Virus record (IMG/VR): IMGVR_UViG_2602041568_000006
Span: 1 to 14,285 of that record
Origin: a virus
Taxonomy: Duplodnaviria; Heunggongvirae; Uroviricota; Caudoviricetes
DNA length: 14,285 nucleotides
Direction: 5' to 3' (one strand)
The notes below the pieces were generated by a model. That model saw only the letters and a program-made list of their open reading frames with translations, was not told the DNA's origin and made no database searches. Numbering within the stretch: position 1 is the stretch's first letter; each line of letters opens with the position of its first letter. The position numbers and the translations under genes are program-made. Of this stretch, positions 553 through 14,285 are shown one piece after another.

Positions 553-559
553 GGTCACC

Positions 560-1369
560 TCAATGAACGGTATCGAGCAGCTTTAACAGCTCAGGGAATC
601 GGGATTCGAAGAAATGCGGCTGCGTCTCGCGCGGATTTGCGGGACTGGTGATGTTCTTGCCGAACATGCAGCCTTTCGCTGTCAGCGACCAGAATTTTTT
701 GATGTTGTTAATCGCAGTGCGGCTGTATCGTTCACGTTGTTCAACGATCCCCAGCTTCGCCATCTGGTGATATGCCTGATTAGCTGTCAGGCGGATACCA
801 TACTGCTTCAGCAGTGCACTCAATGATAGCGTGGGGCGGCTTGAGCCATCAGGCGCGTCAGCAGGAGCATCAATGGCATAGCGCGGTGCCAGATTCGGTA
901 AGCCAACAGCCTCCTGGAGTTTCTGACAGGCACCAAGCACTGAAGAGTTAGACAGGTTTAACTCCCGGCGCATAAAGTCCAGCAGGATCACGCCAGCCTG
1001 CATCTTGTCAGCAGCCTGTCCGGATAATTTTTCCGGTGCGCTGGTTACCATATCGAAAGTACGGATCACCTTCAGATGGAATGACGGGCTGATCCACATT
1101 GCATAGGCATACACCAGTTCCTTGCAGACATACGTTCCCCGTTCATTTCCCCCATGAATCACACTCACCGGGTCAACACCCAAATTCTGGGTGTTGGTCA
1201 ATTCATGAACAAGCTCAACAGTTTGTTGGCTGGAAAGAAACTTTCCCGGCTCCTTGGTTCTGGCATTTGCACCAGATGCTACTGCTGCGCGATGCAGATC
1301 GTTCAGGCTGTAACGCCCATAAGCATCACGACGAACTTCAATACCATCAATGACCATCAGATTATTCAT
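560..1369 (-). CDS. KilA-N domain protein (antirepressor/Roi-like phage DNA-binding protein)
   Basis: 269-aa ORF with ATG start at 1369 preceded by AAGAGGAGAAA. The N-terminal ~100 aa fit the KilA-N pattern (YSLNDLHRAA...GGNERGTYVCKELVYAYAMWISPSFHLKVI). Confidence 0.7.
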   Translation of the reverse strand: MNNLMVIDGIEVRRDAYGRYSLNDLHRAAVASGANARTKEPGKFLSSQQTVELVHELTNTQNLGVDPVSVIHGGNERGTYVCKELVYAYAMWISPSFHLKVIRTFDMVTSAPEKLSGQAADKMQAGVILLDFMRRELNLSNSSVLGACQKLQEAVGLPNLAPRYAIDAPADAPDGSSRPTLSLSALLKQYGIRLTANQAYHQMAKLGIVEQRERYSRTAINNIKKFWSLTAKGCMFGKNITSPANPRETQPHFFESRFPELLKLLDTVH

Positions 1370-1388
1370 ACTTCGTTTCTCCTCTTAA

Positions 1389-1778
1389 TCAGGCGGCTGC
1401 ACCCGCCGTTTTCTCGTACTTACTGATAGTGATCTCGACCTTCCCTTCCGGGATAACCGGTCCCCACTCCACCAGCATTCTTTTCACCTGACTGTCGTCT
1501 TCCCACACACCCGCGTGGGTCAGGGCGTCAAACAGTGCCTTGTTATAGTTGTCCAGATCGCGGATCCGGTTATCCGGAGGAAACAACACGATCTCCACTG
1601 AAGCAGGTGCCGACGTTGGTTTTGGCAGACGACGTAACTGCTCAACTATTGCTGCGCACGCCGCGCTCTGAAATTTTCGCCCCGCCGCGCTTATCAGGCT
1701 CTTACCAGAAAATGCCCCTTTGTTGGGGTGTCGCCAGTACGTGTTCACGCTGGGCGGAAAAGGCAAGATCAGCTTCAT
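1389..1778 (-). CDS. rusA: Holliday-junction resolvase RusA (crossover junction endodeoxyribonuclease)
   Basis: 129-aa ORF; the N-terminal LPFPPSVNTYW motif, size and acidic residues (DLDN) are typical of RusA. ATGA overlap with the upstream gene at 1775-1778. Confidence 0.8.
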   Translation of the reverse strand: MKLILPFPPSVNTYWRHPNKGAFSGKSLISAAGRKFQSAACAAIVEQLRRLPKPTSAPASVEIVLFPPDNRIRDLDNYNKALFDALTHAGVWEDDSQVKRMLVEWGPVIPEGKVEITISKYEKTAGAAA

Positions 1779-2101
1779 ACTTTCAGGCCCCTCTCATGTA
1801 ACCAGTGGGTTGCACGCAGCCTTGCGTTTTCCTCACCGGCAAGCAGTGCGCGGATAATCCCGACCGCCTCGCTGTCGTCGTCCTTCACCGCGGTATGAAG
1901 CGTTATCCCCCGGGCCACTCCACGCTTTATCGTGATGACGCCTTTTTTCTCCAGTGCGCGAAGATGCTCCACCGCTGCATTCACTGAACGGTATCCCAGC
2001 ATGGTTGCCACCTCCTGATTGGTTGGCGGAAAGCCACGCTCTTTCTGATAAGAAATCAGCATATCCAGCACCTGCTGCTGGCATTGAGTTAATGTCGTCA
2101 T
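1775..2101 (-). CDS. LexA-like winged-helix DNA-binding protein lacking the S24 peptidase domain
   Basis: 108-aa ORF. Residues 5-68 align by eye with the E. coli LexA N-terminal domain (QQQVLDMLISY...PPT..EVA..LGYRS.NAA.EHLRALEKKGVI.I..G.ARGI.L). No Ser/Lys peptidase domain follows. ATGA overlaps at both ends. Confidence 0.7.
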   Translation of the reverse strand: MTTLTQCQQQVLDMLISYQKERGFPPTNQEVATMLGYRSVNAAVEHLRALEKKGVITIKRGVARGITLHTAVKDDDSEAVGIIRALLAGEENARLRATHWLHERGLKV

Positions 2102-2751
2102 GCCGCCATCTCCCTGACCAGTTTTTCCGCCTGCTGGCGAACCTGCGCCAGAAACGCCTCACCACATGCCTCAAGTTCATCGCGCCCGATGTAGCTGATT
2201 GCCGGTCCCTTCCAGGTCTTGTCAAAAACAGCAATAGCACCAGCGAAAAAAGCTCCTGTCGGTACCTGCTTCTCGTCTTTCGGGATAAACCAGACAGGCA
2301 GTTCAAAACCAATACGCCCGCGAATAAAAGCAATATGATCTGCATCTTCCGGCCACCACACTTCGCTGGTGGCAGCTTTGATCAGGAAAACATAGCGCCC
2401 GCCCTTATCACGCATGGCACTGGCATGTTTCATGATGTAACGCATGCCGGTGATGTATTGCCCCTCATGCTGACTGGCGCGGCTGTATGGAGGATTACCA
2501 AAGGCAGCACCTTTAAGCTCCGCAAGGCGTTCTGACCAGTCATGCGCCAGCGCGTTGTCTTCCGCCGTGTAATACGCGGCACATTTGGCGTTATCACCGT
2601 CAGTGAACAGATCCAGAACAAACGGGCCAAACAGGGTGTTAATTCCCCAGAAAATGTTGTCCGGCGTGCGCCACTGATCACCCACTTCCTTCAGTTCATG
2701 GGCTGGTTTGTTCCGCAGTTCCACCAGCTCCTGGCAATATTTATTACTCAT
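2098..2751 (-). CDS. Phage DNA N6-adenine methyltransferase (Dam-type, orphan)
   Basis: NPPY catalytic motif (AAFGNPPYSRA), typical of phage N-6-adenine methyltransferases. Start placed at ATG 2751 (MSNKYCQ...), which overlaps the upstream stop as TAATG; the track's longer 2784 start would overlap the upstream gene. Confidence 0.75.
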   Translation of the reverse strand: MSNKYCQELVELRNKPAHELKEVGDQWRTPDNIFWGINTLFGPFVLDLFTDGDNAKCAAYYTAEDNALAHDWSERLAELKGAAFGNPPYSRASQHEGQYITGMRYIMKHASAMRDKGGRYVFLIKAATSEVWWPEDADHIAFIRGRIGFELPVWFIPKDEKQVPTGAFFAGAIAVFDKTWKGPAISYIGRDELEACGEAFLAQVRQQAEKLVREMAA

Positions 2752-3245
2752 TAAGCCCCCACGTAATTCCCTGACAGATACCACTCTTCACCCGATGCAG
2801 CGCGCTTGCTGCTTTTCCGTAAACACTGCTCACGACGCACCAGAAAATTGTTTCGTTCTGGCTGGGAGTGGCTTTCACGGAATGCCGCCATCCACACCGT
2901 TGCAGCACGACGGTATAGGCCCCTGGACTCCAGTTCTTCCGCCTGGCGGGTCAGGCACAAAATCACCCGGGGATCGTTAGTGCCGACATAGAAATTGCGC
3001 ACAGGTCTGGTTTCACGAACTGGTTGTGGCTCCGGCTCCTGCGCTCTCTCAGTCAGGCGTGGGAAATGTCTGCGTGTATCTCCTTCACAACGGTGAGCCA
3101 CACGCCCACTCTGACGTAACTTGCTTGCTGACTGCAGAACGCGCTGCCGTGAGTAACCTGCAAAAGCATCCGCAATGTCTCCGGAAGTACACCCCGGATG
3201 GGCTTCAATGAATTTCTGAACTTCATTCAAAAGACTCATGATCAC
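2751..3245 (-). CDS. yfdN: YfdN-like prophage protein with N-terminal winged-helix-like region
   Basis: 164-aa ORF, the same length I recall for K-12 CPS-53 YfdN, and it sits next to the methyltransferase and replication-like gene as yfdM/yfdN/yfdO do. The 3245 start is GTG; ATG at 3239 with a GGGGG SD 6 nt upstream is an alternative. Symbol is recalled, not verified. Confidence 0.5.
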   Translation of the reverse strand: MIMSLLNEVQKFIEAHPGCTSGDIADAFAGYSRQRVLQSASKLRQSGRVAHRCEGDTRRHFPRLTERAQEPEPQPVRETRPVRNFYVGTNDPRVILCLTRQAEELESRGLYRRAATVWMAAFRESHSQPERNNFLVRREQCLRKSSKRAASGEEWYLSGNYVGA

Positions 3246-4060
3246 CCCCTGAATCCTGCCGGGATCTGGCTGTAATCCACGTTGTCGTAACTGGCTTTGA
3301 AGTACGGGTCCTCGCGTCTGGCTGCAGATACCGCAGGAACTTCCCAGGATTCTTCGAAATGACGATCCGGACCAAAGAACGTGACAGCCTGTTTCACAAA
3401 TTGTGTGCCGCTGTTACCCATCGCAGATACCCAGCACGAGTAGCGTTTCACACCTTCCAGCATGGTTTCGGGGTTTACCCCCTCATTCAAACGGGCTTTC
3501 CAGGCTTTGAAGGCTGCTGATTTTGAATTGCCACCAGCACGTTTGGGGTATGCCAGCCATGCCTGCTCAAACTCCGGAGAGTATTCCGGTCGGTTTGAAC
3601 GAACTCGCACAGACTCATCAGCAGATGCACCAACAGCTATTGGTTCATTGACTGGTTCTTTGACTGGTTCAAAAGAGTGACTGGTTCTGGGTGAATCTCC
3701 TGCACTACCCCCTGGTGCAACTCCTGCACTACCTGGTGAATTTGCTGCACCAGATAGTGAATTATTTGCACTACCCCCTAGTGAATCTCCTGCACCATCA
3801 AGATGAAGAAGATAGATATTACTTGAGTTACCTTTTTCACCTTTCCGGGTGACTTTTTTTACCAGCCCGGACTCACAGAGGGCCGCAATATGATTCATCA
3901 CAGAACGTTTGCTAATCTCGCACTGGTCAGCAATATGCTGGTAGCTGGGCCAGCACTCACCCTGATCGCTGGCATTATCAGCCAGCTTGATCAGAACCAG
4001 TTTTCGCAATGGATTACCCACTCGAATTTTCATCGCTTTAACCATCAGCTCCATACTCAT
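3242..4060 (-). CDS. Phage replication initiator / replisome organiser-like protein (N-terminal HTH, repeat-rich linker, C-terminal AWLAYPKR domain)
   Basis: 272-aa ORF with GGAGG SD 6 nt upstream of ATG 4060. The N-terminus (NPLRKLVLIKLADNASDQGECWPSYQHIADQCEISKRSVMNHIAAL) is HTH-like, followed by a G/S/A/P low-complexity linker and a C-terminal EFEQAWLAYPKRAGGNSKSAAFKAWKARL motif typical of phage replication proteins. Corresponds in position to the O-like yfdO remnant. Confidence 0.6.
   Translation of the reverse strand: MSMELMVKAMKIRVGNPLRKLVLIKLADNASDQGECWPSYQHIADQCEISKRSVMNHIAALCESGLVKKVTRKGEKGNSSNIYLLHLDGAGDSLGGSANNSLSGAANSPGSAGVAPGGSAGDSPRTSHSFEPVKEPVNEPIAVGASADESVRVRSNRPEYSPEFEQAWLAYPKRAGGNSKSAAFKAWKARLNEGVNPETMLEGVKRYSCWVSAMGNSGTQFVKQAVTFFGPDRHFEESWEVPAVSAARREDPYFKASYDNVDYSQIPAGFRG
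3648..3795. repeat. Mosaic of short direct repeats inside the replication-protein gene, encoding the low-complexity linker
   Basis: GACTGGTTC occurs three times (3649, 3662, 3679); GTGAATCTCCTGCAC twice (3691, 3781); CTCCTGCACTACC twice (3697, 3721). Confidence 0.55.
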
Positions 4061-4281
4061 GCTGCACCTCCGAGATGCTTCATGTTTTTTCCGGAGCGAA
4101 AGGCTATAAGCGGCATACTGACGCGGTAATTACGGCCCAGCGGTTCACAAATCACCTTCTGACATTCACGGTCAACCAGGCTAACACGTAGAACATGCCC
4201 TGCAGGCGTGGTGTACCACTGACCCGGACGAGGACAACGGAAAGTCTGATTGGTAAAACGTTTGAAAATATTCCGGATCAT
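4057..4281 (-). CDS. Hypothetical 74-aa basic protein, translationally coupled within the replication operon
   Basis: ATGA overlaps with the upstream gene (4278-4281) and downstream gene (4057-4060). No family recognised. Confidence 0.45.
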   Translation of the reverse strand: MIRNIFKRFTNQTFRCPRPGQWYTTPAGHVLRVSLVDRECQKVICEPLGRNYRVSMPLIAFRSGKNMKHLGGAA

Positions 4282-5426
4282 TTGCGCCCCCTTACCTCTG
4301 AAGGGTTCAGCGACAAATTTATGAGGCAGGCCAGCGCCGAAGCATCATTAATATAGTCATATAAGCTAACAGCCAGCGGAGATTCGGCTTTTGCCAACAT
4401 AGGATAAAGCTGCTGCAGCCAGACCTGATGAATTGATGAAATGTAGGAACAGAGAACGCTGGCGTTATGTGCAACGTCGCTCGGTACAGCGGGCTTTGAA
4501 AGCTGTTTCTCCATCTGGTTAAAGGCATTGATGTATGCCTCTTTGAACTGGGCAGCACGTTTACCCGTGAAACCCATAGCAAGAAACGCAAAGCCGTCGC
4601 GGGTTATTTGATAGCAAGGTAGTTTGCGGCCTGATGCGTCGATGTACTCACTGAGCTGGAAATTCAGCTCAGTAAATTCGGCAGAGCATTCAAGAGACGC
4701 AATTTTTTGAATGACGTTTTTGTGTTGTTTGCCGAAATAACTAGCAACAGCCAGAGAAGAAGTAACAACTTTGTCTGCAATAATGCAAAGTTCAGGTTGA
4801 ACTAAGGCAGGGATCGTAGCCATGATGGCAGCCTCCGTATGCAATGGATAACTTCCACCACCGGAAACGCCAATTTCGCTGGTGGTGAACTGAGCAGGGT
4901 TGGCGTAACCGGCGCATACGGAAACCGGCGCACCTTTCGGTGCCCCCACCCAGCCCACCATAATTTGGGTATAGCTGAGTTGTAGCAACAAAAAAGACGC
5001 TAACGCGCCAATTGTCGCCGTATGCAATTCCAGGACGCCAATCCCGGCACCCGCTTTATAAGGTGCCTGAACAGTGTAACGTCCCGGAATGGCAGAATCA
5101 ATGTGCTGGTGGTCCTTCACACTCAACAAAATCACGCCTGAATTTCCACAAAGGACTAAAGCACTCATGCGGGTAGTCTTTGCGAAGATAGATAACGCGC
5201 TGTGTTTCTGGCTCCCAACGAATAACATGAACATAAAGTCCTCTTCCGTCACGAAACCAGCGGTTAAGTTCCTGCACAACTCGCCCCCCACAGTCAGGTA
5301 AAGTTCTCTGTGGTTACTTACAGCCAGGTGATTTGGTAATCTGCATTCATGCCGTAACAACAGGTGTGCAGCGACACTGACCACCAGCTGTTGCGACAAA
5401 CGGTTATTTGCCGTTAAACTGTTCAT
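4278..5426 (-). CDS. Rha-family phage regulatory protein; Rha domain begins at internal Met (ATG 4823, GGAGG SD) after an uncharacterised ~200-codon in-frame N-terminal extension
   Basis: Continuous 382-codon ORF. Residues 202-290 (MATIPALVQPELCIIADKVVTSSLAVASYFGKQHKNVIQKI...EFTELNFQ...RDGFAFLAMGFTGKRAAQFKEAYINAFNQME) match the Phage_pRha pattern. A strong GGAGG lies 8 nt upstream of the internal ATG at 4823. The N-terminal 200 aa are A/G/S/L/V/H-rich and poorly charged. The 5426 ATG overlaps the upstream stop as ATGA. Confidence 0.5.
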   Translation of the reverse strand: MNSLTANNRLSQQLVVSVAAHLLLRHECRLPNHLAVSNHRELYLTVGGELCRNLTAGFVTEEDFMFMLFVGSQKHSALSIFAKTTRMSALVLCGNSGVILLSVKDHQHIDSAIPGRYTVQAPYKAGAGIGVLELHTATIGALASFLLLQLSYTQIMVGWVGAPKGAPVSVCAGYANPAQFTTSEIGVSGGGSYPLHTEAAIMATIPALVQPELCIIADKVVTSSLAVASYFGKQHKNVIQKIASLECSAEFTELNFQLSEYIDASGRKLPCYQITRDGFAFLAMGFTGKRAAQFKEAYINAFNQMEKQLSKPAVPSDVAHNASVLCSYISSIHQVWLQQLYPMLAKAESPLAVSLYDYINDASALACLINLSLNPSEVRGRK

Positions 5427-6058
5427 GCGTTAGTTTCTCCACAGACACAAAACGCCACGACGCCCGGAGCTGCACACTCGCGGGCGTTACTCTTTTCCGG
5501 CGCACAAAAAACACGAAATAACAGTGTTAAATGCTCCTGCCACTTCGCCATTACTTGGTAGCTGTTCTCTTCGATTTGCTCACGCTCAGCTTGGTCAATA
5601 ACTCCATCAGCAGTTGCCTTGCGTAAGTACTGGGAATGCTTGCCAATCCATTCTATTGACTCCATCAGCCGCTGATTAATGTCACCATTGTCAATATCAT
5701 CAATGACCACCAGCGGCACAAACACCCCATTACTACGACGGGCTATTGCATCCGTTACATGCCTGGTACCACTGGCATCCTGTAAAACCATGGCCCACTC
5801 AAGTGGAAAAATTTGATCCCCACCGCTACGCAGTCTGTTATGCAATTGATCTTTTGCTGGGGTGATATCATCAGATTTATACAAACCAAGAATTTCTGCT
5901 GCTTCCTCATAGCCATGAGGTAAATCAGCAATCGTTCTTCGTATTGCTGCCACCAGCCATGCTGGTTGCTTATCAACTTTCCATTCAGGTTCTTTACCCA
6001 CGTTTAAGCCCTCATATCTGTGGTTTCTGTAAATCGATTTATCCATTAGATTTTTCAT
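5423..6058 (-). CDS. CII-like / YdaT-family early regulatory protein (position-based assignment)
   Basis: ORF immediately downstream of the Cro-like gene. The track start at 6115 is GTG; in-frame ATGs at 6058 (MKNLMDKS) and 6046 are more plausible and overlap the 3' end of cro. Function is inferred from position in the operon, not from motifs. Confidence 0.45.
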   Translation of the reverse strand: MKNLMDKSIYRNHRYEGLNVGKEPEWKVDKQPAWLVAAIRRTIADLPHGYEEAAEILGLYKSDDITPAKDQLHNRLRSGGDQIFPLEWAMVLQDASGTRHVTDAIARRSNGVFVPLVVIDDIDNGDINQRLMESIEWIGKHSQYLRKATADGVIDQAEREQIEENSYQVMAKWQEHLTLLFRVFCAPEKSNARECAAPGVVAFCVCGETNA

Positions 6059-6239
6059 AAAGCTCAGGTTTAAATGGCAACCGTCCGCAAGTTCTATATG
6101 CAGCCTCTGCTGCACGTCCTTTTGGAATTAACTGGCCAGGACGGTTTCGCCACTGATAAACGGCTTCAGTTGTTATGCCGAAAAAAGCAGCAACTTTCTC
6201 AATGCTGCCGAAGTAGCTTTCGATATCGTCAGTCGTCAT
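6039..6239 (-). CDS. Cro-like HTH repressor (YdaS/Cro family)
   Basis: 66-aa ORF divergent from the cI-like gene. Contains an HTH-like segment (IEKVAAFFGITTEAVYQWRNR) and has a GGAGG(G) SD just upstream of ATG 6239. Confidence 0.7.
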   Translation of the reverse strand: MTTDDIESYFGSIEKVAAFFGITTEAVYQWRNRPGQLIPKGRAAEAAYRTCGRLPFKPELYEKSNG

Positions 6240-6250
6240 ATGCCCTCCAA

Positions 6251-6315
6251 ACTAAGTTTTATTAGATGTTAATTATCAATCTATCTTAGGTCAATAAAAA
6301 CTAAGATTACTTAGT
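6251..6315. promoter_or_regulatory. OR-like tripartite operator between cro and cI: 16-bp sites of the ACTAAG-N4-CTTAGT family
   Basis: Sites at 6251-6266 (ACTAAGTTTTATTAGA), 6275-6290 (degenerate, ATCAATCTATCTTAGG) and 6300-6315 (ACTAAGATTACTTAGT, perfect 6-bp arms), spaced about 24-25 bp centre to centre as in lambda OR1-3. Confidence 0.45.
6266..6294 (-). promoter_or_regulatory. Candidate pR-like sigma70 promoter for cro (TTGACC-N17-TAACAT on the minus strand)
   Basis: -35 TTGACC at 6294-6289 and -10 TAACAT at 6271-6266 with a 17-bp spacer; overlapped by the operator half-sites. Confidence 0.35.
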
Positions 6316-6336
6316 AATTAAAGAAATGGTGCTCCT

Positions 6337-6963
6337 ATGGAAACGGTTGGTCAGCGTATAAAAGCTCTGAGAAGAGTTACCAGAACGTCCCAGAAAGAAT
6401 TGGGTAAATTTTGTGGAGTAAGTGACGTTGCTGTGGGGTACTGGGAGAAAGACATCAATGTCCCTGGTGGGGAAGCACTTTCAAAATTAGCGAAGTTCTT
6501 CAATACGTCAATAGATTACATTCTTTATGGTGCGGAGTTTGAAGGCAAACTCGTCACAAACATGCGCAGAGTTCCTGTAATCTCGTGGGTTCAGGCTGGG
6601 CAGTTTACTGAGTGCAGGACAGCAGAAGTGTTTAGTGAAGTAGACAAGTGGGTAGATACATCATTAAAGATTGGTGATAACTCATTTGCATTGGAGGTTA
6701 AAGGCGACTCCATGACTAACCCTAACGGCCTCCCAACAATACCAGAAGGCGCAACAGTGATTGTAGATCCTGATGCAGAACCCCGGCATGGAAAAATAGT
6801 CATCGCTAGACTTGATGGAACAAACGAAGCCACAGTAAAAAAATTAGTTATCGATGGCCCTCAAAAGTTTTTAGTGCCATTAAATCCCCGGTACCCCAAC
6901 ATCCCGATCAATGGTAATTGCCTCATCATTGGTGTAGTCAAAGGAGTTCAATACGAACTCTAG
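6337..6963 (+). CDS. CI-like prophage repressor (N-terminal XRE HTH, C-terminal S24 LexA-like autopeptidase domain)
   Basis: 208-aa ORF. N-terminal HTH (QRIKALRRVTRTSQKELGKFCGVSDVAVGYWEK) and C-terminal S24 motifs (GDSMTNP...; VKKL Lys). No obvious SD, suggesting a leaderless or poorly translated mRNA as for lambda cI. Confidence 0.85.
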   Translation: METVGQRIKALRRVTRTSQKELGKFCGVSDVAVGYWEKDINVPGGEALSKLAKFFNTSIDYILYGAEFEGKLVTNMRRVPVISWVQAGQFTECRTAEVFSEVDKWVDTSLKIGDNSFALEVKGDSMTNPNGLPTIPEGATVIVDPDAEPRHGKIVIARLDGTNEATVKKLVIDGPQKFLVPLNPRYPNIPINGNCLIIGVVKGVQYEL

Positions 6964-6991
6964 CCCCCCTTTTCTCTAACCAAAACACCGA

Positions 6992-7045
6992 ACTAAGAAA
7001 AGTTTGGTGTTTTCTCTTGCCATCAAAACTAAGTTAAGTTAGATT
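6992..7045 (+). promoter_or_regulatory. Operator-like sites downstream of cI (ACTAAGAAAAGTTTGG, ACTAAGTTAAGTTAGA) with a possible TTGCCA-N17-TAGATT promoter: candidate OL/pL
   Basis: Sites at 6992-7007 and 7028-7043 share the ACTAAG half-site with the OR sites. Possible -35 TTGCCA at 7017-7022 and -10 TAGATT at 7040-7045. Confidence 0.3.
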
Positions 7046-7117
7046 TTATATCAAAGATAACGAACAGGCAGGACGCCCACGAAGTAGCCGCCGGTGGCGG
7101 GATGATTCGTTAGCAAC

Positions 7118-7154
7118 AAAAAAGCGCCCTACAGGACGCTTTGCTCTTTAAAAA
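7118..7154. terminator. Hairpin with minus-strand U-tract (terminator for the 7308-7802 gene), abutting a boxA-like TGCTCTTTAAAAA on the plus strand
   Basis: Stem 7124-7129 / 7134-7139 with loop TACA. On the minus strand it forms 6 bp including one G-U and is followed by UUUUUU (complement of 7118-7123). On the plus strand the stem has a C-A mismatch and is followed by TTGCTCTTTAAAAA (7141-7154). Confidence 0.5.
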
Positions 7155-7307
7155 TCAGTAACCCTCACTTTGGGCCTGGACCTGGTGGCCTGGGACGAGG
7201 AGGAATATGAAAAGGCTCTATTGGTCGACTCATTATCCAATCCTATTATGTCTCATTTCTTCGGTTTCGGTGGTTTCGGCTTCGGAGGTACATGTCCGTG
7301 AACTGGA

Positions 7308-7802
7308 TTATGCTTGTTGGTCATCATTAATATCCGTTAGTTCATTCTCTAGAGGTAGATCTCCCGCACACCAAGCTATAAATTTTTCTTTGGTTGTTAA
7401 ATCGTACTTAGTTGGAACACCAGCAAAAATACAGGCCCGAATGAAAGCCGCTCGTTCAAGTGATTTCCATGGATTACTATCAGTATCTTGGATTTTTAAA
7501 TACCTAGCTTGCAACTGATCTTCAGGAAGGGTATCAGACTCAATCAGCAGTCTTTTGTAATGCCTCGCTTGCTCTTTAGACATTCCAGCCTCCTGGCCAA
7601 ACTGATAGACCAACTGAAGAACCGAAAGTACGGCAACAAACAAACCGAAAATAAATAAATTACTGTACGGGGCGAAAACTGAAAAACCGAGAACGATTAA
7701 CATCAACGTTATTAATTTATCAATGCGAGTTAACAACGTGTAATTCATCTTCTCCAATACATAAGAGTAGTGAACATAAAATTTATAATCGTCTCTGGTC
7801 AT
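7308..7802 (-). CDS. AT-rich membrane protein with an N-terminal two-helix hairpin and soluble acidic C-terminal domain; candidate superinfection-exclusion/abortive-infection moron
   Basis: 164-aa ORF with two predicted TM helices (LITLMLIVLGFSVFAPY, LFIFGLFVAVLSVLQLVYQF). AT-rich third codon positions, own orientation opposite to the flanking genes, and a downstream minus-strand terminator at 7118-7139. Overlaps the antisense plus ORF 7207-7518. Confidence 0.5.
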   Translation of the reverse strand: MTRDDYKFYVHYSYVLEKMNYTLLTRIDKLITLMLIVLGFSVFAPYSNLFIFGLFVAVLSVLQLVYQFGQEAGMSKEQARHYKRLLIESDTLPEDQLQARYLKIQDTDSNPWKSLERAAFIRACIFAGVPTKYDLTTKEKFIAWCAGDLPLENELTDINDDQQA

Positions 7803-7901
7803 ATTAGTCTCAGTTTTCCTTGGGTGGTTTTGGAGGAACTGGAGGCTTTTGTCTTAACGGCACATGCCTCTCCTCATACTTATCTACACATAGATCCATA
7901 T

Positions 7902-7958
7902 AAATCCTTATCGTTGTTGGGGAGGGTTACATAATAACCAAATCCTTGTTGTTGGGGA
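7902..7958. repeat. Direct repeat AAATCCTT(ATC)GTTGTTGGGGA, two copies about 38 bp apart, in the non-coding region upstream of the early-left genes
   Basis: Copies at 7902-7923 and 7940-7958, identical apart from a 3-nt insertion. Confidence 0.5.
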
Positions 7959-8185
7959 ATAACCAGGTCCACCTCGCCTGATGTGGCTAAAAGCAGGCAC
8001 ATAACAGCTAAGTATTTTCAACCAGAGAGAATCCTTAGCGTTGTGGTGAATGCGGCTCAGCGCACGCGGGTTAAGGTTGAGGCTGACAGTCGACCTTCTG
8101 TGGATACCCACCCGCCTGGTGTGCAACCTTCGCCAGGCACCGGGAGGCACCCGGCACCACAACTTTATGCTGTGTGTAGTCCTGG

Positions 8186-8231
8186 CGGTACCAGTTTGTA
8201 CCCTTGCTTCCGGCTGGTACCGTCCTTTTTA
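8186..8231 (+). terminator. Terminator-like hairpin (9-bp stem CGGTACCAG / CTGGTACCG, then TCCTTTTT) within the GC-rich leader upstream of the yfdP-like gene
   Basis: Perfect inverted repeat 8186-8194 / 8214-8222 with a 19-nt loop, followed by a T-run at 8225-8230. Other GC hairpins lie at 8074-8096 and 8140-8154. Confidence 0.35.
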
Positions 8232-8367
8232 CAAAACAGAGAAGAGCATCACCGGACGACGGGCTCATAACCCAATCCATCCGGGCGGCTGCCACCGCAG
8301 GTGTTCTTCTCTGTTTTGTGGAGAAACTAATCGGCCTTGCAGGGTCGATATGATGAGGAGCAGCAAA

Positions 8368-8730
8368 ATGGCTAGCGAACGCAGTACTGATGTGCAGGCA
8401 TTTATCGGGGAGCTGGACGGCGGCGTATTTGAAACCAAAATCGGCGCAGTTCTCAGTGAAGTCGCTTCCGGTGTGATGAACACGAAAACCAAAGGTAAGG
8501 TCTCACTCAACCTGGAAATCGAACCATTTGATGAGAACCGTGTGAAAATCAAACACAAACTCTCATATGTTCGCCCGACTAACCGTGGGAAAATTTCCGA
8601 AGAAGACACCACCGAAACGCCGATGTATGTCAATCGCGGTGGTCGCCTGACTATTCTGCAGGAAGACCAGGGACAATTACTGACTCTTGCCGGTGAGCCT
8701 GACGGAAAACTCCGCGCAGCAGGTCATTAA
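8368..8730 (+). CDS. yfdP: YfdP-like early-left prophage protein
   Basis: ATG at 8368 preceded by GAGGAG 7 nt upstream gives 120 aa, the length I recall for K-12 YfdP, and it is followed by the yfdQ/R/S-like genes in the same order. The upstream in-frame extension of the track ORF lies in a GC-rich structured region. Confidence 0.55.
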   Translation: MASERSTDVQAFIGELDGGVFETKIGAVLSEVASGVMNTKTKGKVSLNLEIEPFDENRVKIKHKLSYVRPTNRGKISEEDTTETPMYVNRGGRLTILQEDQGQLLTLAGEPDGKLRAAGH

Positions 8731-8795
8731 TATCGTTCTTAATTAACTGATTATTTATCTCATCACTGAATATCTTAATATAGTGAGGACTTATT

Positions 8796-9620
8796 ATGTC
8801 TCAGAACTTAGACGCAACCGCAATTAATCAAATCCATGCCCTTATTTCTGCTCAGGGTGTTAATGACATTATCAGTAAGATTGGTGCCGATGCTGTGGCA
8901 TTGCCTGAGAATTTCCGCATTCATGATCTGGAAAAATTTAATTTAAATCGCTTCCGTTTCCGTGGTGCACTTTCCACTGCCAGCATCGATGACTTTACCC
9001 GTTATTCTAAAGATCTTGCAGATGAAGGCACCCGCTGCTTTATCGATGCCGATAATATGCGAGCCGTCAGTGTGCTTAACCTGGGTACTATTGATGAACC
9101 AGGTCACGCAGATAACACCGCCACTCTCAAACTGAAAAAGACAGCACCGTTCTCTGCTCTGTTGTCTGTTAATGGCGAGCGTAACTCCCAGAAGTCACTG
9201 GCAGAATGGATTGAAGACTGGGCCGACTACCTTGTGGGCTTTGATGCTAATGGTGACGCCATTCAGGCAACCAAAGCGGCTGCGGCGATCCGTAAAATCA
9301 CAATTGAAGCGAACCAGACCGCTGATTTTGAAGACAATGACTTCAGCGGCAAACGCTCCCTGATGGAGTCTGTCGAAGCGAAGACCAAAGACATTATGCC
9401 AGTGGCATTTGAATTTAAATGCGTTCCGTTTGAAGGTCTGAAAGAACGTCCGTTTAAATTACGCCTCAGAATTATCACTGGCGATCGTCCTGTACTGGTT
9501 CTGCGCATTATTCAGCTGGAGGCGGTGCAGGAAGAAATGGCTAACGAATTTCGTGATCTGCTTGTTGAGAAATTCAAGGACAGCAAAGTAGAAACCTTTA
9601 TTGGTACTTTCACCGCCTGA
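8796..9620 (+). CDS. yfdQ: YfdQ-like protein (DUF2303-type prophage protein)
   Basis: 274-aa ORF with a GAGG SD 7 nt upstream of ATG 8796; length and position match my recollection of YfdQ in CPS-53. Confidence 0.6.
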
Positions 9621-9747
9621 TTTCATTACTGCAAATGCCCCTGCGGGGGCATTTATGGAAACGTAATTTACTCAATAATCGCCGGATGGTGAGGGATTCT
9701 TTTTACCAGAATTCAGCGCGGTGCAGCGCATATACGTGGAGAACAAA

Positions 9748-10284
9748 ATGTCATTTATCAAAACTTTTTCTGGGAAGCATTTTTATTATGACAGGATAAA
9801 TAAAGACGACATCGATATTAACGATATCGCGGTTTCCCTTTCAAATATCTGTCGCTTTGCCGGTCATCTTTCGCACTTCTACAGCGTCGCCCAACATGCG
9901 GTTCTTTGCAGCCAGCTGGTGCCGCAGGAATTTGCTTTTGAAGCGTTAATGCATGATGCAACAGAAGCGTATTGCCAGGACATTCCCGCACCACTGAAAC
10001 GCCTTCTTCCTGACTATAAACGGATGGAAGAAAAAATAGACGCCGTAATCCGTGAGAAATACGGGTTACCACCGGTTATGAGTACGCCCGTGAAATATGC
10101 CGATCTCATCATGCTGGCAACCGAACGCCGCGATCTCGGGCTTGATGATGGCTCTTTCTGGCCTGTACTGGAAGGTATCCCGGCAACAGAGATGTTCAAC
10201 GTGATTCCACTGGCACCAGGCCATGCCTACGGGATGTTTATGGAACGCTTTAACGAATTATCGGAGTTACGCAAATGCGCATGA
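9748..10284 (+). CDS. yfdR: HD-domain phosphohydrolase, YfdR-like 5'-deoxynucleotidase
   Basis: HD-domain motifs (SVAQHAV...ALMHDATEAY). ATG at 9748 with GGAG SD gives 178 aa, the length recalled for YfdR. The track start at 9721 is GTG. Confidence 0.7.
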   Translation: MSFIKTFSGKHFYYDRINKDDIDINDIAVSLSNICRFAGHLSHFYSVAQHAVLCSQLVPQEFAFEALMHDATEAYCQDIPAPLKRLLPDYKRMEEKIDAVIREKYGLPPVMSTPVKYADLIMLATERRDLGLDDGSFWPVLEGIPATEMFNVIPLAPGHAYGMFMERFNELSELRKCA

Positions 10285-10637
10285 ATGTTTTCGAAATGGA
10301 AGGATTTCTTCGCGGGAAATGTGTACCGCGAGATCTGAAAGTGAATGAAACGGATGCTGAATACCTGGTGCGTAAATTTGATGCGCTTGAAGCTAAATGT
10401 GCAGCACTGGAAAACAAAGTAATACCAGTGTCAGCTGAACTGCCGCCAGCGAATGAAAGTGTTCTGTTATTTGATGCTAATGGAGAAGGCTGGCTGATTG
10501 GCTGGCGTTCTCTCTGGTATACATGGGGGCAAAAAGAAACCGGAGAATGGCAGTGGACATTTCAGGTCGGGGACCTTGAAAACGTCAACATCACTCACTG
10601 GGCAGTAATGCCAAAAGCACCGGAGGCTGGAGCATAA
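10275..10637 (+). CDS. yfdS: YfdS-like protein
   Basis: 120-aa ORF overlapping the end of the HD-domain gene; TAATG overlap with the next gene. Length and order match my recollection of YfdS. Confidence 0.5.
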   Translation: MRMNVFEMEGFLRGKCVPRDLKVNETDAEYLVRKFDALEAKCAALENKVIPVSAELPPANESVLLFDANGEGWLIGWRSLWYTWGQKETGEWQWTFQVGDLENVNITHWAVMPKAPEAGA

Positions 10638-11446
10638 TGACCACATTTACCGATAAAGAACTGATTAAAGAAATCAAAGAACGAATCAGCAGCATGGACG
10701 TGCGAGACAATGTTGAGCGCCGTGCTTATGAAATTGCTCTGGCATCGCTGGAAGAGGATCCGGTGGCATGGCTGCATTCAGACAATGGCTTAGGTATTCC
10801 GGCAATAACCAGGAGTAAAAACATTGCTGACAGTTGGTTATCAAAGGGCTGGTATGTTCAGCCGCTATATATAGCTAAGCCAGTGCCGGTGGTGCCAGAT
10901 GCTCGTCCGTCTTTAAATAATGGCATAGTCGGTTTTGATGAAGGCTGGAACGCCTGCCGCGCTGCCATGCTCTATGGTGCCGTACCTGCAAGCCAGGCTT
11001 ACAAGTTGCCACAAACGCAGTTTAAACAGGTTGCTGACCTCTACGAAATGCAATTTGATGACGGTCGCACTTGTGCCTTTCACACTGATGCGCAAAAGGC
11101 TGTGCAATGGCTTCAGGCGTGCGACGGAAACAGGGTTCAGGAATACGTTAAGCTGGAACGATTGCAGAACGCACTGTCTGGCAACTCTCCGGTAACTCCG
11201 GATGGTTGGGTTATGGTGCCGAAGAGACTAACAGCCGAGAACGGCGCTAAGGGGGCGCTATCCGGTGAATTTTCAGAAACTACGTTTATAAGCTGCCTGG
11301 AATGCTTTGGCGATGATGATTGCGATACCTGTGACGGGAGCGGACGTATTGAAATTAAAGTGCCAGTCACGTGGTCGACCATAAAATCTATCTGGGATAA
11401 AGGTATCGAGTATTTTGCAGCAAAACCATCACAAGAGGTGAAGTGA
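10637..11446 (+). CDS. Hypothetical early-left protein with C-terminal DnaJ-type CxxCxGxG zinc-finger-like motif
   Basis: 269-aa ORF with the motif CLECFGDDDCDTCDGSG near the C-terminus. Translationally coupled at both ends. Possibly the full-length counterpart of the shorter K-12 yfdT. Confidence 0.55.
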   Translation: MTTFTDKELIKEIKERISSMDVRDNVERRAYEIALASLEEDPVAWLHSDNGLGIPAITRSKNIADSWLSKGWYVQPLYIAKPVPVVPDARPSLNNGIVGFDEGWNACRAAMLYGAVPASQAYKLPQTQFKQVADLYEMQFDDGRTCAFHTDAQKAVQWLQACDGNRVQEYVKLERLQNALSGNSPVTPDGWVMVPKRLTAENGAKGALSGEFSETTFISCLECFGDDDCDTCDGSGRIEIKVPVTWSTIKSIWDKGIEYFAAKPSQEVK

Positions 11447-12018
11447 TGAACAACTTAATGATCGACCTTGAGACGATGGGGAAAAATAAGGATGCACCGA
11501 TCGTTTCCATTGGCGCGGTGTTCTTCACTCCAGAAACCGGAGACATCGGACAAGAATTCTATACGGTTGTTAGCCTGGAAAGTGCTATGGGGCAAGGAGC
11601 TACACCTGACGGCGATACCATCCTGTGGTGGTTGAAACAAAGCCCTGAAGCACGAGCTGCAATCTGTATTGATGATACTTTGTCGATCAGCGATGCTCTC
11701 TCAGAACTAAATCATTTCATTAACCGGCACGCAGACAATACGAAATATTTAAAAGTCTGGGGTAACGGAGCCACCTTCGACAACGTAATTTTACGTGGAG
11801 CTTATGAGCGAGCAGGACAAATCTGCCCGTGGGCATACTGGAATGACCACGATGTACGCACGATCGTTACGCTTGGGCGTTCCATCGGATTCGACCCCAA
11901 AATGGACATGCCTTTCGATGGCGAACGGCACAACGCCCTGGCTGATGCCCGTCATCAGGCAAAATATGTTTCCGCTATCTGGCAGAAATTAATTCCTGCC
12001 ACCAGCACAGAATTATGA
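11446..12018 (+). CDS. DEDDh-family 3'-5' exonuclease (DnaQ-like fold)
   Basis: Exo I motif (MIDLETMG) and a C-terminal H-x4-D motif (HNALADARHQ). Start placed at ATG 11446 (AAGAGG SD 7 nt upstream), overlapping the upstream TGA; the track start at 11443 is GTG. Confidence 0.7.
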   Translation: MNNLMIDLETMGKNKDAPIVSIGAVFFTPETGDIGQEFYTVVSLESAMGQGATPDGDTILWWLKQSPEARAAICIDDTLSISDALSELNHFINRHADNTKYLKVWGNGATFDNVILRGAYERAGQICPWAYWNDHDVRTIVTLGRSIGFDPKMDMPFDGERHNALADARHQAKYVSAIWQKLIPATSTEL

Positions 12019-12054
12019 TTTTCCCGGGTGCAGCCGGTTTTGATGGAGAAAATT

Positions 12055-12336
12055 ATGAACACCTTGTTTTTACTGATGGCTGAATTCAATACCCCTAACA
12101 TTGAACTCTCAGCAGTTAGCCAAAAGTACTTTGGCATGAGTCCAGCCACGGCAGAAGCAAAAGCAAACGCTTGTAAGTTGCCCGTTCCAACATATCGCAT
12201 CGGCACATCACAAAAAGCAAAACGTTGCATCAATATTCAGGATCTTGCGGAATACATAGACAAAAGACGAGAAGAAGGACGTATCGAGTGGGAACAGGTC
12301 AGAACAAGCAAACAGAAGGGCAAAGAACATCACTAA
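12055..12336 (+). CDS. PrtN-family / excisionase-like small DNA-binding protein
   Basis: Start at ATG 12055 with a GGAG SD 6 nt upstream gives a 93-aa product (MNTLFLLMAEF...KLPVPTYRIGTSQKAKRCINIQDLAEYIDKRREEG) resembling the pyocin-activator PrtN / phage excisionase family. The track ORF begins at GTG 12028. Ends at the terminator. Confidence 0.55.
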   Translation: MNTLFLLMAEFNTPNIELSAVSQKYFGMSPATAEAKANACKLPVPTYRIGTSQKAKRCINIQDLAEYIDKRREEGRIEWEQVRTSKQKGKEHH

Positions 12337-12368
12337 ATAAAAAACCCGCCTAAAGGCGGGTTTTCAAA
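12336..12368. terminator. Bidirectional rho-independent terminator between the convergent early-left operon and the accessory cassette
   Basis: A-run 12336-12344, stem CCCGCC 12345-12350, loop TAAA, stem GGCGGG 12355-12360, then TTTT 12361-12364. The U-tract is stronger when read on the minus strand. Confidence 0.7.
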
Positions 12369-12383
12369 AAGCACCAGCTATGA

Positions 12384-12557
12384 TCATGCTGCTTTGCGAC
12401 GACGAAGCTTACCCTGCTGCTCTTTACCAGAGACAGTAGCGTGAGTGAACGCATTATGAGCAGCCTTCATCAGAACTTCAACAGCAGCACCCATACCTGC
12501 GAATGCTTTCATTGTGTCGAACTTAACCTGTGGCTTGGTTGCTTTTTGATCTTCCAT
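12384..12557 (-). CDS. Unlisted 57-aa ORF (MEDQKATKPQVKFDTMKAFAGMGAAVEVLMKAAHNAFTHATVSGKEQQGKLRRRKAA), third gene of the accessory operon
   Basis: Hand translation. ATG at 12557-12555 is preceded by AGGAG 6 nt upstream; TGA at 12386-12384 is followed directly by the terminator. Below the ORF-track length cutoff. Predicted helical with a basic C-terminal tail. Confidence 0.4.
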   Translation of the reverse strand: MEDQKATKPQVKFDTMKAFAGMGAAVEVLMKAAHNAFTHATVSGKEQQGKLRRRKAA

Positions 12558-12596
12558 AGAAAACTCCTGAAGTTATACCGAAACAATTCCTGTTGT

Positions 12597-13016
12597 TTAC
12601 TCATCATCAATAGATGATACGCAATATTTATTTTTAAATTTAAGGTTCTTTGGCGTAACTTCATCAGAGATATCAAAACCGTCCAGAATTCTATTGAATG
12701 TAGCTTCTGGCATATCATCATGAACAGAAATCTCACCCGATCGCTGCTTTCTAACCATGTTATCCACTCGCCAAATTATAGCTTCAGCGTAAACAACATA
12801 ACTTGGATGCTTGATAAAGCGATGATCACCAGAATTCAAGATGCAAGACGGATCGTGGGGGACACCATCCTTGATACTAGAAATATTAACAACTAAAACA
12901 CAATAACAATCGTTAACGGGGTAATAAACAGGATCATTACAAATCACATGAAGATGATTGCATGGCCCAGTTGGGGCAAGCACAGTTCCTTTCCTGTATG
13001 GCTGATAATCCGTCAT
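12597..13016 (-). CDS. 139-aa Cys/His-rich protein of unrecognised family, translationally coupled to the Panacea-like gene; candidate toxin/effector
   Basis: ATGA overlap with the upstream gene at 13013-13016, AT-rich codon usage, and no motif I recognise (GPCNHLHVICNDPVYYPVNDCYC...). The toxin role is inferred only from gene order (socAB-like). Confidence 0.5.
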   Translation of the reverse strand: MTDYQPYRKGTVLAPTGPCNHLHVICNDPVYYPVNDCYCVLVVNISSIKDGVPHDPSCILNSGDHRFIKHPSYVVYAEAIIWRVDNMVRKQRSGEISVHDDMPEATFNRILDGFDISDEVTPKNLKFKNKYCVSSIDDE

Positions 13017-13585
13017 GATAATTGCAAAGAAAATTCCTTAAGTTTCTGAGATTCTTCCATTTTGCCAATTATGCGATTAGCCTCATCCTCGCTTTTACCC
13101 TCACTGATCAGCATTTCTTTCAGGTCTATAGGCTTACGAGAATTGCCAGGATCGTGCCACTCTGGACAAACGCTTTCTAAATGCGTCATATTTGCGAGAT
13201 CAAATCGGTTCATATGCCCATACCGAGAATAGATTTCATCTAAAATCCGGATATCTGCACGACTCAATTCATCAAAGACCTCGTCTGCATCCATTTCCCT
13301 CGGATCTGAACGCAACGATACATTATGCCCGTTCGTCTCTATCAAGTTGTACCAGTAGTCACCAATGCCTTCAGCCTTACCGCGAATCAAGTTCAGCGTA
13401 TTCGACATGACTGGTCCAAATTTCATAGAGTAAAGGCTATCTTCGCCGATCATCCTGCCATGCTTCAAAATCGACTGGCGGTTAGACAGATAGAGCAACT
13501 TCATCAATTTCAGATATGCCATGCGCCCACCTCGCTTAAGAAGTAGGTATGCAGCCATTTGAGCTACTTTTTCTTCGCAAAACAT
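13013..13585 (-). CDS. Panacea-domain (DUF4065, SocA/GepA-like) protein; candidate antitoxin
   Basis: 190-aa ORF with GAGG SD 9 nt upstream of ATG 13585. Matches the Panacea pattern as I recall it (AAYLLLKRGG...LKLMKLLYLSNRQSILKHGRMIGEDSLYSMKFGPVMSNTL) and has the C-terminal THLESVCPEW-type motif. Confidence 0.6.
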   Translation of the reverse strand: MFCEEKVAQMAAYLLLKRGGRMAYLKLMKLLYLSNRQSILKHGRMIGEDSLYSMKFGPVMSNTLNLIRGKAEGIGDYWYNLIETNGHNVSLRSDPREMDADEVFDELSRADIRILDEIYSRYGHMNRFDLANMTHLESVCPEWHDPGNSRKPIDLKEMLISEGKSEDEANRIIGKMEESQKLKEFSLQLS

Positions 13586-14285
13586 ATAAGAAACCTCAAA
13601 GATAGTGAACTTTATAATTATTCTCGATACTTCATGGGTTGCTTCATCACCAACACGAGCTTCTTATGGTGTGCCCACTTGGGCCTAAGCAACCAGTTAC
13701 CTCGTTTGTCAAGTTTATAGCTGGCTTTAACCATGGTCAATTGAAGTGATGAGCAAATGATGCTTTCTAAGAATAACAGGTTCCCAATAGGCTCCCACAA
13801 AGTGTATAACTAGTTGTTTTTCAAAAACGGTACATCCTATCGAGCATTGGTGCAACGCTAAACCGACCACTCCAGTGAACGTCAGTTTTTTCAGGCATTG
13901 CGCTGGTTTGGTTGATTTTTTGCATTTCAGAATTACCGTGCATTTTCAAATGTAGAGATTATTTTATCGATATATCATGGGGTTATGTTATTCAGCATCA
14001 CTATTCAGGAGGCTCAATAGCGGGGTACTATACCATAACAACAGGAAGCGCCTGTCTCATTGCAAAAGAAAATTGAGATCCTCTCAAGGCATGAAGCTCT
14101 CACGAAGTGATGGAAATAATCTTATTAGCCGTTAACTTTGTTAAGGCCAATGATAAACAATCCAGGTTCGACGATAAATAAAAAATCACACATTAAACTC
14201 TGGTGATATATCTCCCTGCTAATAGCATTGATAGAGAAAAAAGGGTAATGACTCCAACTTATTGATAGTGTTTTATGTTCAGATA

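Follow-up and report, generated by a model that had tools for sequence, protein, structure and literature searches.

The window considered here, a stretch of 14,285 nucleotides (nt) that makes up positions 1 to 14,285 of the caudoviricete record IMGVR_UViG_2602041568_000006, is part of an SfV/ST64B/e14-like lambdoid prophage of Escherichia coli. The same segment is found in RefSeq E. coli genomes at 99.5% identity, with ymfK/ymfT/ymfL and yfdP/yfdQ/yfdR homologues as neighbours. As the left arm begins with P22-Cro-like and CII-like genes, the window represents the immunity region of the prophage. Between the gene for a cI-type repressor, which has a Peptidase_S24 (1.6e-27) and an HTH_3 domain in the Pfam scan, and the yfdP/yfdQ-type early genes lies a short cassette on the minus strand (Table 1), which combines a gene for a two-transmembrane (2TM) protein of 164 amino acids (aa) with three proline-rich micro open reading frames (micro-ORFs), one directly upstream and two downstream of the gene, framed by a leader with a candidate promoter and by an intrinsic terminator. 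Current annotations omit three of these four genes.

Table 1. Coordinates of the cassette, its elements and its immediate genomic context in the window.
Feature	Position	Strand	Description
Cassette, leader to terminator	7112-7968	-
Leader/candidate promoter piece	7905-7968	-	-35 TTCCCC (7959-7954), 17-nt spacer, -10 TATTAT (7936-7931), assigned by eye
Upstream micro-ORF, 29 aa	7810-7899	-	MDLCVDKYEERHVPLRQKPPVPPKPPKEN; 7 nt from its stop codon to the 2TM start
Two-transmembrane (2TM) protein, 164 aa	7308-7802	-	ATG start; WP_001513551.1, annotated 'hypothetical protein'
Downstream micro-ORF 1, 24 aa	7253-7327	-	MMTNKHNPVHGHVPPKPKPPKPKK; 20-nt overlap with the 3' end of the 2TM gene, in another frame
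Downstream micro-ORF 2, 22 aa	7165-7233	-	MSRPIEPFHIPPRPRPPGPGPK
Intrinsic terminator	7112-7142	-	9-bp stem AAAGCGUCC/GGGCGCUUU at 7142-7121, followed by U-rich UUUUGUUGCU
Candidate early-left promoter pL (context, outside the cassette)	7017-7045	+	promoter-like TTGCCA-17-TAGATT
cI-type repressor gene	6337-6963	+
Left arm	560-6239	-	opens with a P22-Cro-like and a CII-like gene
yfdP/yfdQ-type early genes	from ~8365	+

The 2TM gene had been singled out in a sequence-only reading of the window as a putative lysogen-expressed exclusion gene, and its reading frame was assessed by comparison of codons 1-130 in 21 non-redundant divergent homologous loci. Across these loci the minus-strand frame holds not a single stop codon and displays proportions of synonymous (pS) and non-synonymous (pN) differences of 0.82 and 0.22, a ratio of 0.27, whereas the two other same-strand frames hold 188-190 and the three opposite-strand frames 135-172 stops, which identifies the 2TM frame as a real gene, in agreement with the initial proposal. 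The competing assumption, that the minus-strand ORF is fortuitous and that an overlapping plus-strand ORF of 103 aa (7207-7518) is the real gene, could invoke an ATG start, an open frame over 103 codons and a weak sub-threshold match to Pfam HapK (E = 0.0019). However, with each opposite-strand frame interrupted throughout the 21 loci, and with unrelated phages encoding homologues of the minus-strand product that are as little as 25-37% identical, its probability is practically nil; the plus-strand ORF is not conserved and is refuted as a gene by the frame comparison.

Hydropathy places the two hydrophobic segments of the 2TM protein at residues ~30-46 and ~50-67, separated by a turn of 3-4 residues, and the AlphaFold2 model (predicted local distance difference test, pLDDT, 77-81) arranges helices 3-43 and 48-88 as one long hairpin followed by four short C-terminal helices, so that the two-helix membrane hairpin suggested at the outset is recovered by both approaches. 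The N-terminal 29 residues carry a net charge of +1, while the C-terminal 97 residues contain 12 K/R versus 17 D/E and correspond to the charged domain that had likewise been noticed.

In correction of the initial description, the 165 nt that separate the stop codon of the 2TM gene from the terminator are not empty but contain the two conserved downstream micro-ORFs, to be added to the third one directly upstream of the gene. The upstream micro-ORF possesses its own Shine-Dalgarno sequence, AAGGA (7909-7905), and ends with TGA. A proline-rich ORF ending 6-20 nt ahead of the 2TM gene is present in 34 of the 35 non-redundant loci with upstream sequence, with a gap of 6-10 nt in most of them, and its stop codon is in most loci embedded in a Shine-Dalgarno-like cTGAGGt 5-6 nt before the ATG of the 2TM gene. 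The core of the encoded peptide, [YF]-x-E-[RK]-H-[MLV]-P-x(3-4)-[RK]-P-P-x-P-P-K, has a pN/pS of 0.35, while the other frames, often interrupted by stops, reach 1.24 and 2.25. Relatives of 25-37% identity are also preceded by a proline-rich ORF, 7-14 nt away; distant relatives with such an ORF come from Q-holin intervals, P2-type early operons and a metagenomic contig of 55% GC, and in the flanks of distant homologues a tiny annotated ORF ends 7-9 nt before the gene.

Downstream of the 2TM gene, 19 of 24 loci contain one to three ORFs with the motif, all on the strand of the 2TM gene and with a pN/pS of 0.35 versus 1.6 and 2.2 in the other frames; the peptide type of downstream micro-ORF 2 recurs in five loci (L020, L042, L063, L065 and L069). 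The three micro-ORFs of the window have the peptide type H-[VI]-P-P-[KR]-P-[KR]-P-P in common, with the downstream peptides strongly basic and the upstream peptide roughly neutral with an acidic tail. The Pectobacterium homologue P0013 carries the motif as an in-frame extension of its own C-terminus (..GHIPPRPRPPAPPKAQN). Judged by these substitution ratios, all four reading frames of the cassette are under purifying selection.

One explanation for the upstream micro-ORF is that it acts mainly in cis, as a leader on which an elongation factor P (EF-P)-dependent pause at PPVPPKPP or at the stop codon would tune synthesis of the effector, with a peptide devoid of function in trans, a model which is compatible with a defence role of the cassette. 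The narrow gap and the location of the stop codon agree with such a leader, as do the polyproline run 15-35 nt ahead of the ATG, the consecutive prolines in every version, including those of the 25-37% identical relatives, and the precedent of conserved proline-containing arrest peptides upstream of genes (PMC12992588). On the other hand, the downstream motif ORFs cannot gate translation of the 2TM gene, and the motif can be an in-frame C-terminal tail, as in P0013. Furthermore, the cassette peptides (..RQKPPVPPKPPKEN, ..RQRPPAPPKED and ..KRPEPPPKPDDSD) lack the RAPP/RGPP core documented for arrest, RNA folding predicts no significant structure around the junction of upstream micro-ORF and 2TM gene (z = -0.43), and the non-proline residues Y-E-E-R/K-H are also conserved, though arrest peptides can show likewise. 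Because of the downstream paralogues and the fusion of the motif to the protein, trans-acting peptides are favoured over a cis-only leader, which we regard as possible, but as clearly the lesser explanation.

The peptide motif is essentially exclusive to the cassette. When back-translated patterns were scanned over 2.9 million viral contigs (IMG/VR), HVPPKP[RS]PP matched 19 contigs, all 19 of which harbour the cassette, and H[VI]PPRPRPP matched 24 contigs, among them 16 cassette contigs; the remaining eight are chance matches in Arg/Pro-rich frames of 54-73% GC with no family member. The micropeptides have no match in Pfam, and phmmer with two of the peptides retrieved nothing at E <= 10 among PDB chains of at least 20 residues. 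A description of the cassette or its micropeptides was not found in the literature; the PANGU NAP-effector systems, considered as a candidate, are unrelated to it.

The sequence H-[VI]-P-P-[KR]-P-R-P-P resembles, as a lead only, the cores of oncocin (Y-L-P-R-P-R-P-P) and apidaecin (Y-I-P-Q-P-R-P-P). If the likeness were functional, peptides of the proline-rich antimicrobial peptide (PrAMP) type would be the active agents that inhibit translation or DnaK in infected or neighbouring cells, and the 2TM protein would be their release channel, immunity or partner protein in a bacteriocin-like or an intracellular translation-arrest system. The presence of several peptide genes per cassette, the exclusivity of the motif and the strongly basic character of the downstream peptides are in line with such a role. 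We nevertheless rate it as very improbable, with no match to a solved peptide or protein chain, a signal peptide and a processing site lacking, a resemblance confined to short low-complexity strings and an upstream peptide that is nearly neutral and acidic-tailed; self-intoxication of the producer would need explaining in addition. Instead, the micropeptides are most likely trans-acting partners of the 2TM protein, which would be co-made with the effector via translational coupling and might act, as we prefer, as gatekeepers or antitoxin-like regulators of its cytoplasmic C-terminal domain.

The limits of the cassette were mapped by blastn against three sister phages that do not carry the 2TM gene. 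Homology to mEp460 ends at 7099 and returns at 7969, while homology to vB_EcoM-689R6 ends at 7156 and returns at 7905, so that the segment exchanged in the latter, 7157-7904, comprises exactly the upstream micro-ORF, the 2TM gene and the two downstream micro-ORFs. In vB_EcoM-689R6 the slot is occupied by an unrelated 144-aa minus-strand ORF (L076, 1990-2424) with the same leader 7905-7968 and the same terminator; in mEp460 and SfV it is occupied by plus-strand cargo, and mEp460 has no leader piece 7905-7968. The micro-ORFs therefore travel with the 2TM gene and not with the expression signals. A leader and a terminator common to two cargoes suggest, as a side aspect, a conserved expression 'socket' for exchangeable lysogen-expressed cargo.

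The GC content of the 2TM ORF is 38.0%, compared with 47.6% for the window and 51% and 47% for the flanking operons. Because of this low GC content and the replacement of 7157-7904 in mEp460, SfV and vB_EcoM-689R6, the cassette is considered acquired cargo, in support of the horizontal acquisition that had been deduced from AT-richness. The full segment is present in 47 of 5,426 complete E. coli genomes and the flanks in 1,024. Of the terminator assigned to the gene in the sequence-only reading, the hairpin at 7142-7121 is confirmed, 22 nt past the stop codon of downstream micro-ORF 2, with the correction that the unrelated cargo of vB_EcoM-689R6 has it as well. With its own terminator, a deviant GC content and replacement among otherwise collinear phages, the cassette has the hallmarks of a moron.

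The leader contains two CCCCAACAAC..AAGGATT repeats, the second of which provides the AAGGA of the upstream micro-ORF, and is nearly invariant as a block in an alignment of 15 divergent loci. Read on the plus strand, direct repeats of the form AATCCTTnnnGTTGTKGGGRA are located at 7903-7923, 7941-7960 and 8030-8050; all three are upstream of the cassette, two in the portable leader and one in the phage backbone. At the other end of the cassette, the plus strand displays TGCTCTTTAA (7142-7151), its sole copy in the window, directly after the terminator hairpin. We take this sequence to be close to the rrn/lambda boxA consensus, and hairpin and TGCTCTTTAA together (7121-7151, plus strand) may provide pL transcripts with a boxB/boxA-like site for antitermination, with a double use of the hairpin.

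The 15-nt motif ACTAAGN5TTAG occurs in the window only at 6251 and 6300/6301, within the cI/cro interval, and at 7028, with 0.01 occurrences expected by chance, and the operator-like ACTAAGTTAAGTTAG at 7028-7042 overlaps the candidate pL. As the sole operator-type motif outside cI/cro coincides with a promoter-like sequence, pL is placed upstream of the cassette, and early-left transcription must therefore cross the cassette head-on in order to reach yfdP. The antisense crossing anticipated from the sequence thereby gains an operator-marked promoter, and the orientation opposite to both flanks is equally sustained, with the cI-type repressor and yfdP/yfdQ both on the plus strand. The location needs a correction: the cassette is indeed beside cI, but not between cI and pL, since pL and the left operator OL precede it, which puts it within the early-left transcription unit.

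This orientation is a recurrent feature of the relatives. In 60-odd related viral contigs the 2TM gene faces a cI-type repressor gene in convergent orientation in all cases in which a repressor was detected, with the end of the 2TM gene ~350-450 bp from the repressor 3' end; these repressors are 32-100% identical to the cI of the window, and yfdP/yfdQ are present in only some of the contigs. The settings of more distant members are the interval from Q antiterminator to holin gene, that from lysis to terminase genes, and P2-type early operons. Wherever the flanks of a phage-borne relative could be read, the 2TM gene runs counter to the lytic genes beside it. Prophage accessory loci typically consist of genes antisense to the lytic genes and with their own promoter (PMC7067206). 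In Fels-2 (NC_010463, L002; 4001-4459) and in Yersinia phage vB_YenM_42.18 (L003; 4001-4453) the family member is unannotated, with the opposite-strand 'hypothetical' ORFs STM2733.1 and vBYenM4218_008, respectively, called over it. Both calls are probably mis-annotations, and both loci have an upstream proline-rich ORF.

Products related to the 2TM protein, 31-37% identical by tblastn, are encoded by Fels-2, a Yersinia P2-like phage, a Providencia lambdoid phage and phage EKP1, and the protein matches PHROG 6315 ('unknown function') at E = 9e-64. A profile search among 1.84 billion cluster representatives retrieved 230 at E <= 1e-3, of which those listed, fragments aside, stand alone, at ~130-190 aa and with no domain fused to them; a scan of genome contigs with the family alignment A1 gave only three loci.

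Two homologues carry the UniRef label 'SLATT domain'. Among 116 members of the family, sub-threshold NCBIfam matches at E <= 0.1 are to SLATT_4 in 44, to SLATT_1 in 12 and to SLATT_fungal in 2, with a best SLATT_4 match of E = 2.2e-5, while every unrelated family is matched by at most six members. A Foldseek search of BFVD with the AlphaFold model returned SLATT-annotated proteins as seven of the top ten matches (probability 0.66-0.99), and the four best (0.94-0.99) are SLATT proteins of giant viruses. The steady, if sub-threshold, profile signal combined with similarity in the predicted fold points to remote homology, and we call the 2TM family divergent SLATT-like, short of certified membership. 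SLATT proteins are predicted pore-forming effectors and act in DRT10 defence, where activation of the SLATT component is stated as an open question (DRT10 preprint).

Taken together, the cassette is read as a minus-strand moron operon that encodes a SLATT-type exclusion or abortive-infection effector with micropeptide partners and that is silenced by the phage's own pL, a combination to which we assign a probability of about 0.5. The 2TM protein would be an inner-membrane effector with both termini in the cytoplasm, oligomerisation of which would permeabilise or depolarise the membrane, and the membrane damage would lead the lysogen to exclude or to abort infection by other phages. Such a role has been proposed for SLATT effectors and is known for lambda RexB and SieB. 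Expression of the cassette would be restricted to the lysogen: as pL lies upstream, head-on transcription from pL during the phage's own lytic growth should silence the cassette and provide self-immunity on induction.

Several observations weigh against this interpretation. Scans with Pfam, NCBIfam and PADLOC produced no match for the 2TM protein. None of the 116 family members reaches any curated SLATT cut-off, with the best SLATT_4 match below the 55-bit cut-off, and none matches a Pfam SLATT model at E <= 0.01; the 2TM protein of the window itself has no SLATT profile match at E <= 1. The Foldseek E-values are weak, 0.09-0.2 for the best and 0.09-0.6 over the SLATT matches, and among solved structures nothing resembles the 2TM model beyond generic helical hairpins. 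No SMODS/CD-NTase, SLOG, TIR or reverse-transcriptase partner is present in the window or in the related loci examined, so that what usually activates SLATT effectors, nucleotide signalling or a reverse transcriptase, is missing. In a consensus scan the candidate cassette promoter is below threshold and weak. For the micropeptides, the proline-rich tail of the P0013 fusion is modelled by AlphaFold with a pLDDT of 46-65 and no confident docking on the C-terminal domain. Finally, in a Salmonella chromosomal subgroup adjoining sopE-type genes (L077, L129-L134) the 2TM gene has no upstream micro-ORF, which disfavours a simple model in which a lethal toxin needs a peptide antitoxin. This subgroup, often also with a DUF1398 gene nearby, is widely fixed, with up to 1,564 sequences in one cluster, and looks like a domesticated remnant.

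Wide fixation as for a host-beneficial gene, together with the failure of any defence-system model to match, is also what would be expected if the 2TM protein were a lysogenic-conversion or housekeeping membrane factor outside of defence, such as a stress or envelope modulator or a regulator of lysis or induction. We consider this unlikely in view of the SLATT-like signals in sequence and fold. Moreover, the counter-orientation to the lytic genes disfavours a role in the phage's own lysis, and the sites occupied, beside cI, between Q and holin and in the P2-type early region, are typical of exclusion and defence cargo. An effector of the SLATT type in an exclusion cassette thus remains the preferred reading of the 2TM protein.

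A further-reaching proposal, that the one to four micropeptides encoded around the gene work as components of a SLATT-type effector system and that the cassette thus represents an undescribed immune module, is doubtful at present. If true, the micropeptides might sense the translation state via polyproline/EF-P pausing, or gate the pore as PrAMP-like effectors or ligands. In either case they would take the place of the nucleotide signals or reverse transcriptases by which other SLATT systems are activated. Coupling of an effector to translation by peptides, or a PrAMP-like action, would be a new principle in phage defence. As the cassette has strictly associated micropeptides and no enzyme or sensor partner, its ~800 bp offer a minimal, genetically tractable system to study the control of a two-helix effector. 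The classic exclusion sites of temperate phages at cI, Q-lysis and P2-type early regions moreover gain a recurrent, unannotated type of cargo. The new trait is best filed under previously unannotated proline-rich micropeptide genes, while the SLATT-like membrane effector moron itself is of a known kind.

Apart from the cassette, the window contains a number of other features. The mechanically predicted 226-aa ORF 8050-8730 (+) is probably a long-open-frame artefact; the start of yfdP is according to RefSeq at about window position 8371, and the match to PHROG 204 is confined to the last ~120 codons of this ORF. Cassette and yfdP are separated by ~560 bp that are rich in GC and free of genes. 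This gap is filled by a match to an STnc100-like structured RNA (8010-8232, +) of 43.1 bits against a gathering score of 47, which could serve the early-left transcript as a leader or in antitermination. A second, far weaker STnc100-like match (9612-9791, +; 20 bits) follows yfdQ.

On the early-right side, Rfam models detect a C4 antisense RNA at 4878-4965 (-; 80.7 bits) and, beside it, the Hfq-binding RNA isrK at 4990-5066 (-; 61.2 bits), both above the gathering score and both within a 382-aa minus-strand ORF (4278-5426), the counterpart of which in E. coli ACN002 is annotated 'ash family'; the pair constitutes a P1/P7-type C4 immunity RNA module in a lambdoid early-right operon. At the prophage end, the annotation of a near-identical E. 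coli ACN002 region suggests that a 190-aa ORF (13013-13585, -) encodes a Panacea-domain protein. This ORF shares 4 nt with one of 139 aa (12597-13016, -), hypothetical in ACN002 and downstream of a PrtN-like gene, and the pair (12597-13585, -) looks like a PanA-type toxin-antitoxin system.

Among known systems, the cassette resembles lambda sieB (34482-35036, +, between the minus-strand genes ral and N) as a gene for a small membrane protein placed antisense inside the pL operon. Lambda sieB is expressed from the prophage, and self-immunity is an issue for the carrier phage there as well; SieB self-immunity uses an internal in-frame product, Esc. The sas antisense RNA is also involved (PMC7067206). 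The likeness is a positional analogy and not one of membership: a homology to SieB or RexB, envisaged in the sequence-only reading, is not supported, with hhalign probabilities of the family profile of 0.5% against SieB and 0.4% against RexB and no match to PF14163, on which lambda SieB as a control scores 1e-29. In contrast to SieB self-immunity, the flanking micro-ORFs are part of the 2TM cassette. RexAB, too, is cargo next to cI, expressed in the lysogen, and its membrane component RexB presumably depolarises superinfected cells. RexB, however, has four transmembrane segments, shares both strand and transcript with cI and depends on the sensor RexA, whereas the 2TM protein has two segments and is encoded on the strand opposite to cI in a window with no RexA-like gene.

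The upstream micro-ORF shares with ApdA/ApdP, SecM and EF-P-dependent polyproline leaders that a short conserved ORF with consecutive prolines ends just upstream of a gene. Conserved arrest peptides containing prolines, with a RAPP/RGPP/RAPG/RAGP core, are documented upstream of diverse genes (PMC12992588), but paralogues of the cassette peptide also lie downstream, and the 2TM protein itself can bear the motif at its C-terminus. Gene order and the gap of 6-10 nt fit as well the layout of type II toxin-antitoxin systems. The insect PrAMPs oncocin, pyrrhocoricin and apidaecin resemble the cassette peptides as peptides of ~20 residues in which an aromatic or aliphatic residue precedes a core of the P-R-P-x-P-P type; the cassette peptides differ from them in origin and intracellular synthesis and have no detectable homology. 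A further comparison is with SLATT proteins, with which the 2TM family has in common the small size, the two-helix transmembrane hairpin with flanking helices predicted to be cytoplasmic and the carriage by mobile elements and prophages. Proline-rich micro-ORFs have no mention in the SLATT literature consulted, and in contrast to SLATT systems the 2TM family carries such micro-ORFs in place of an enzyme or sensor partner.

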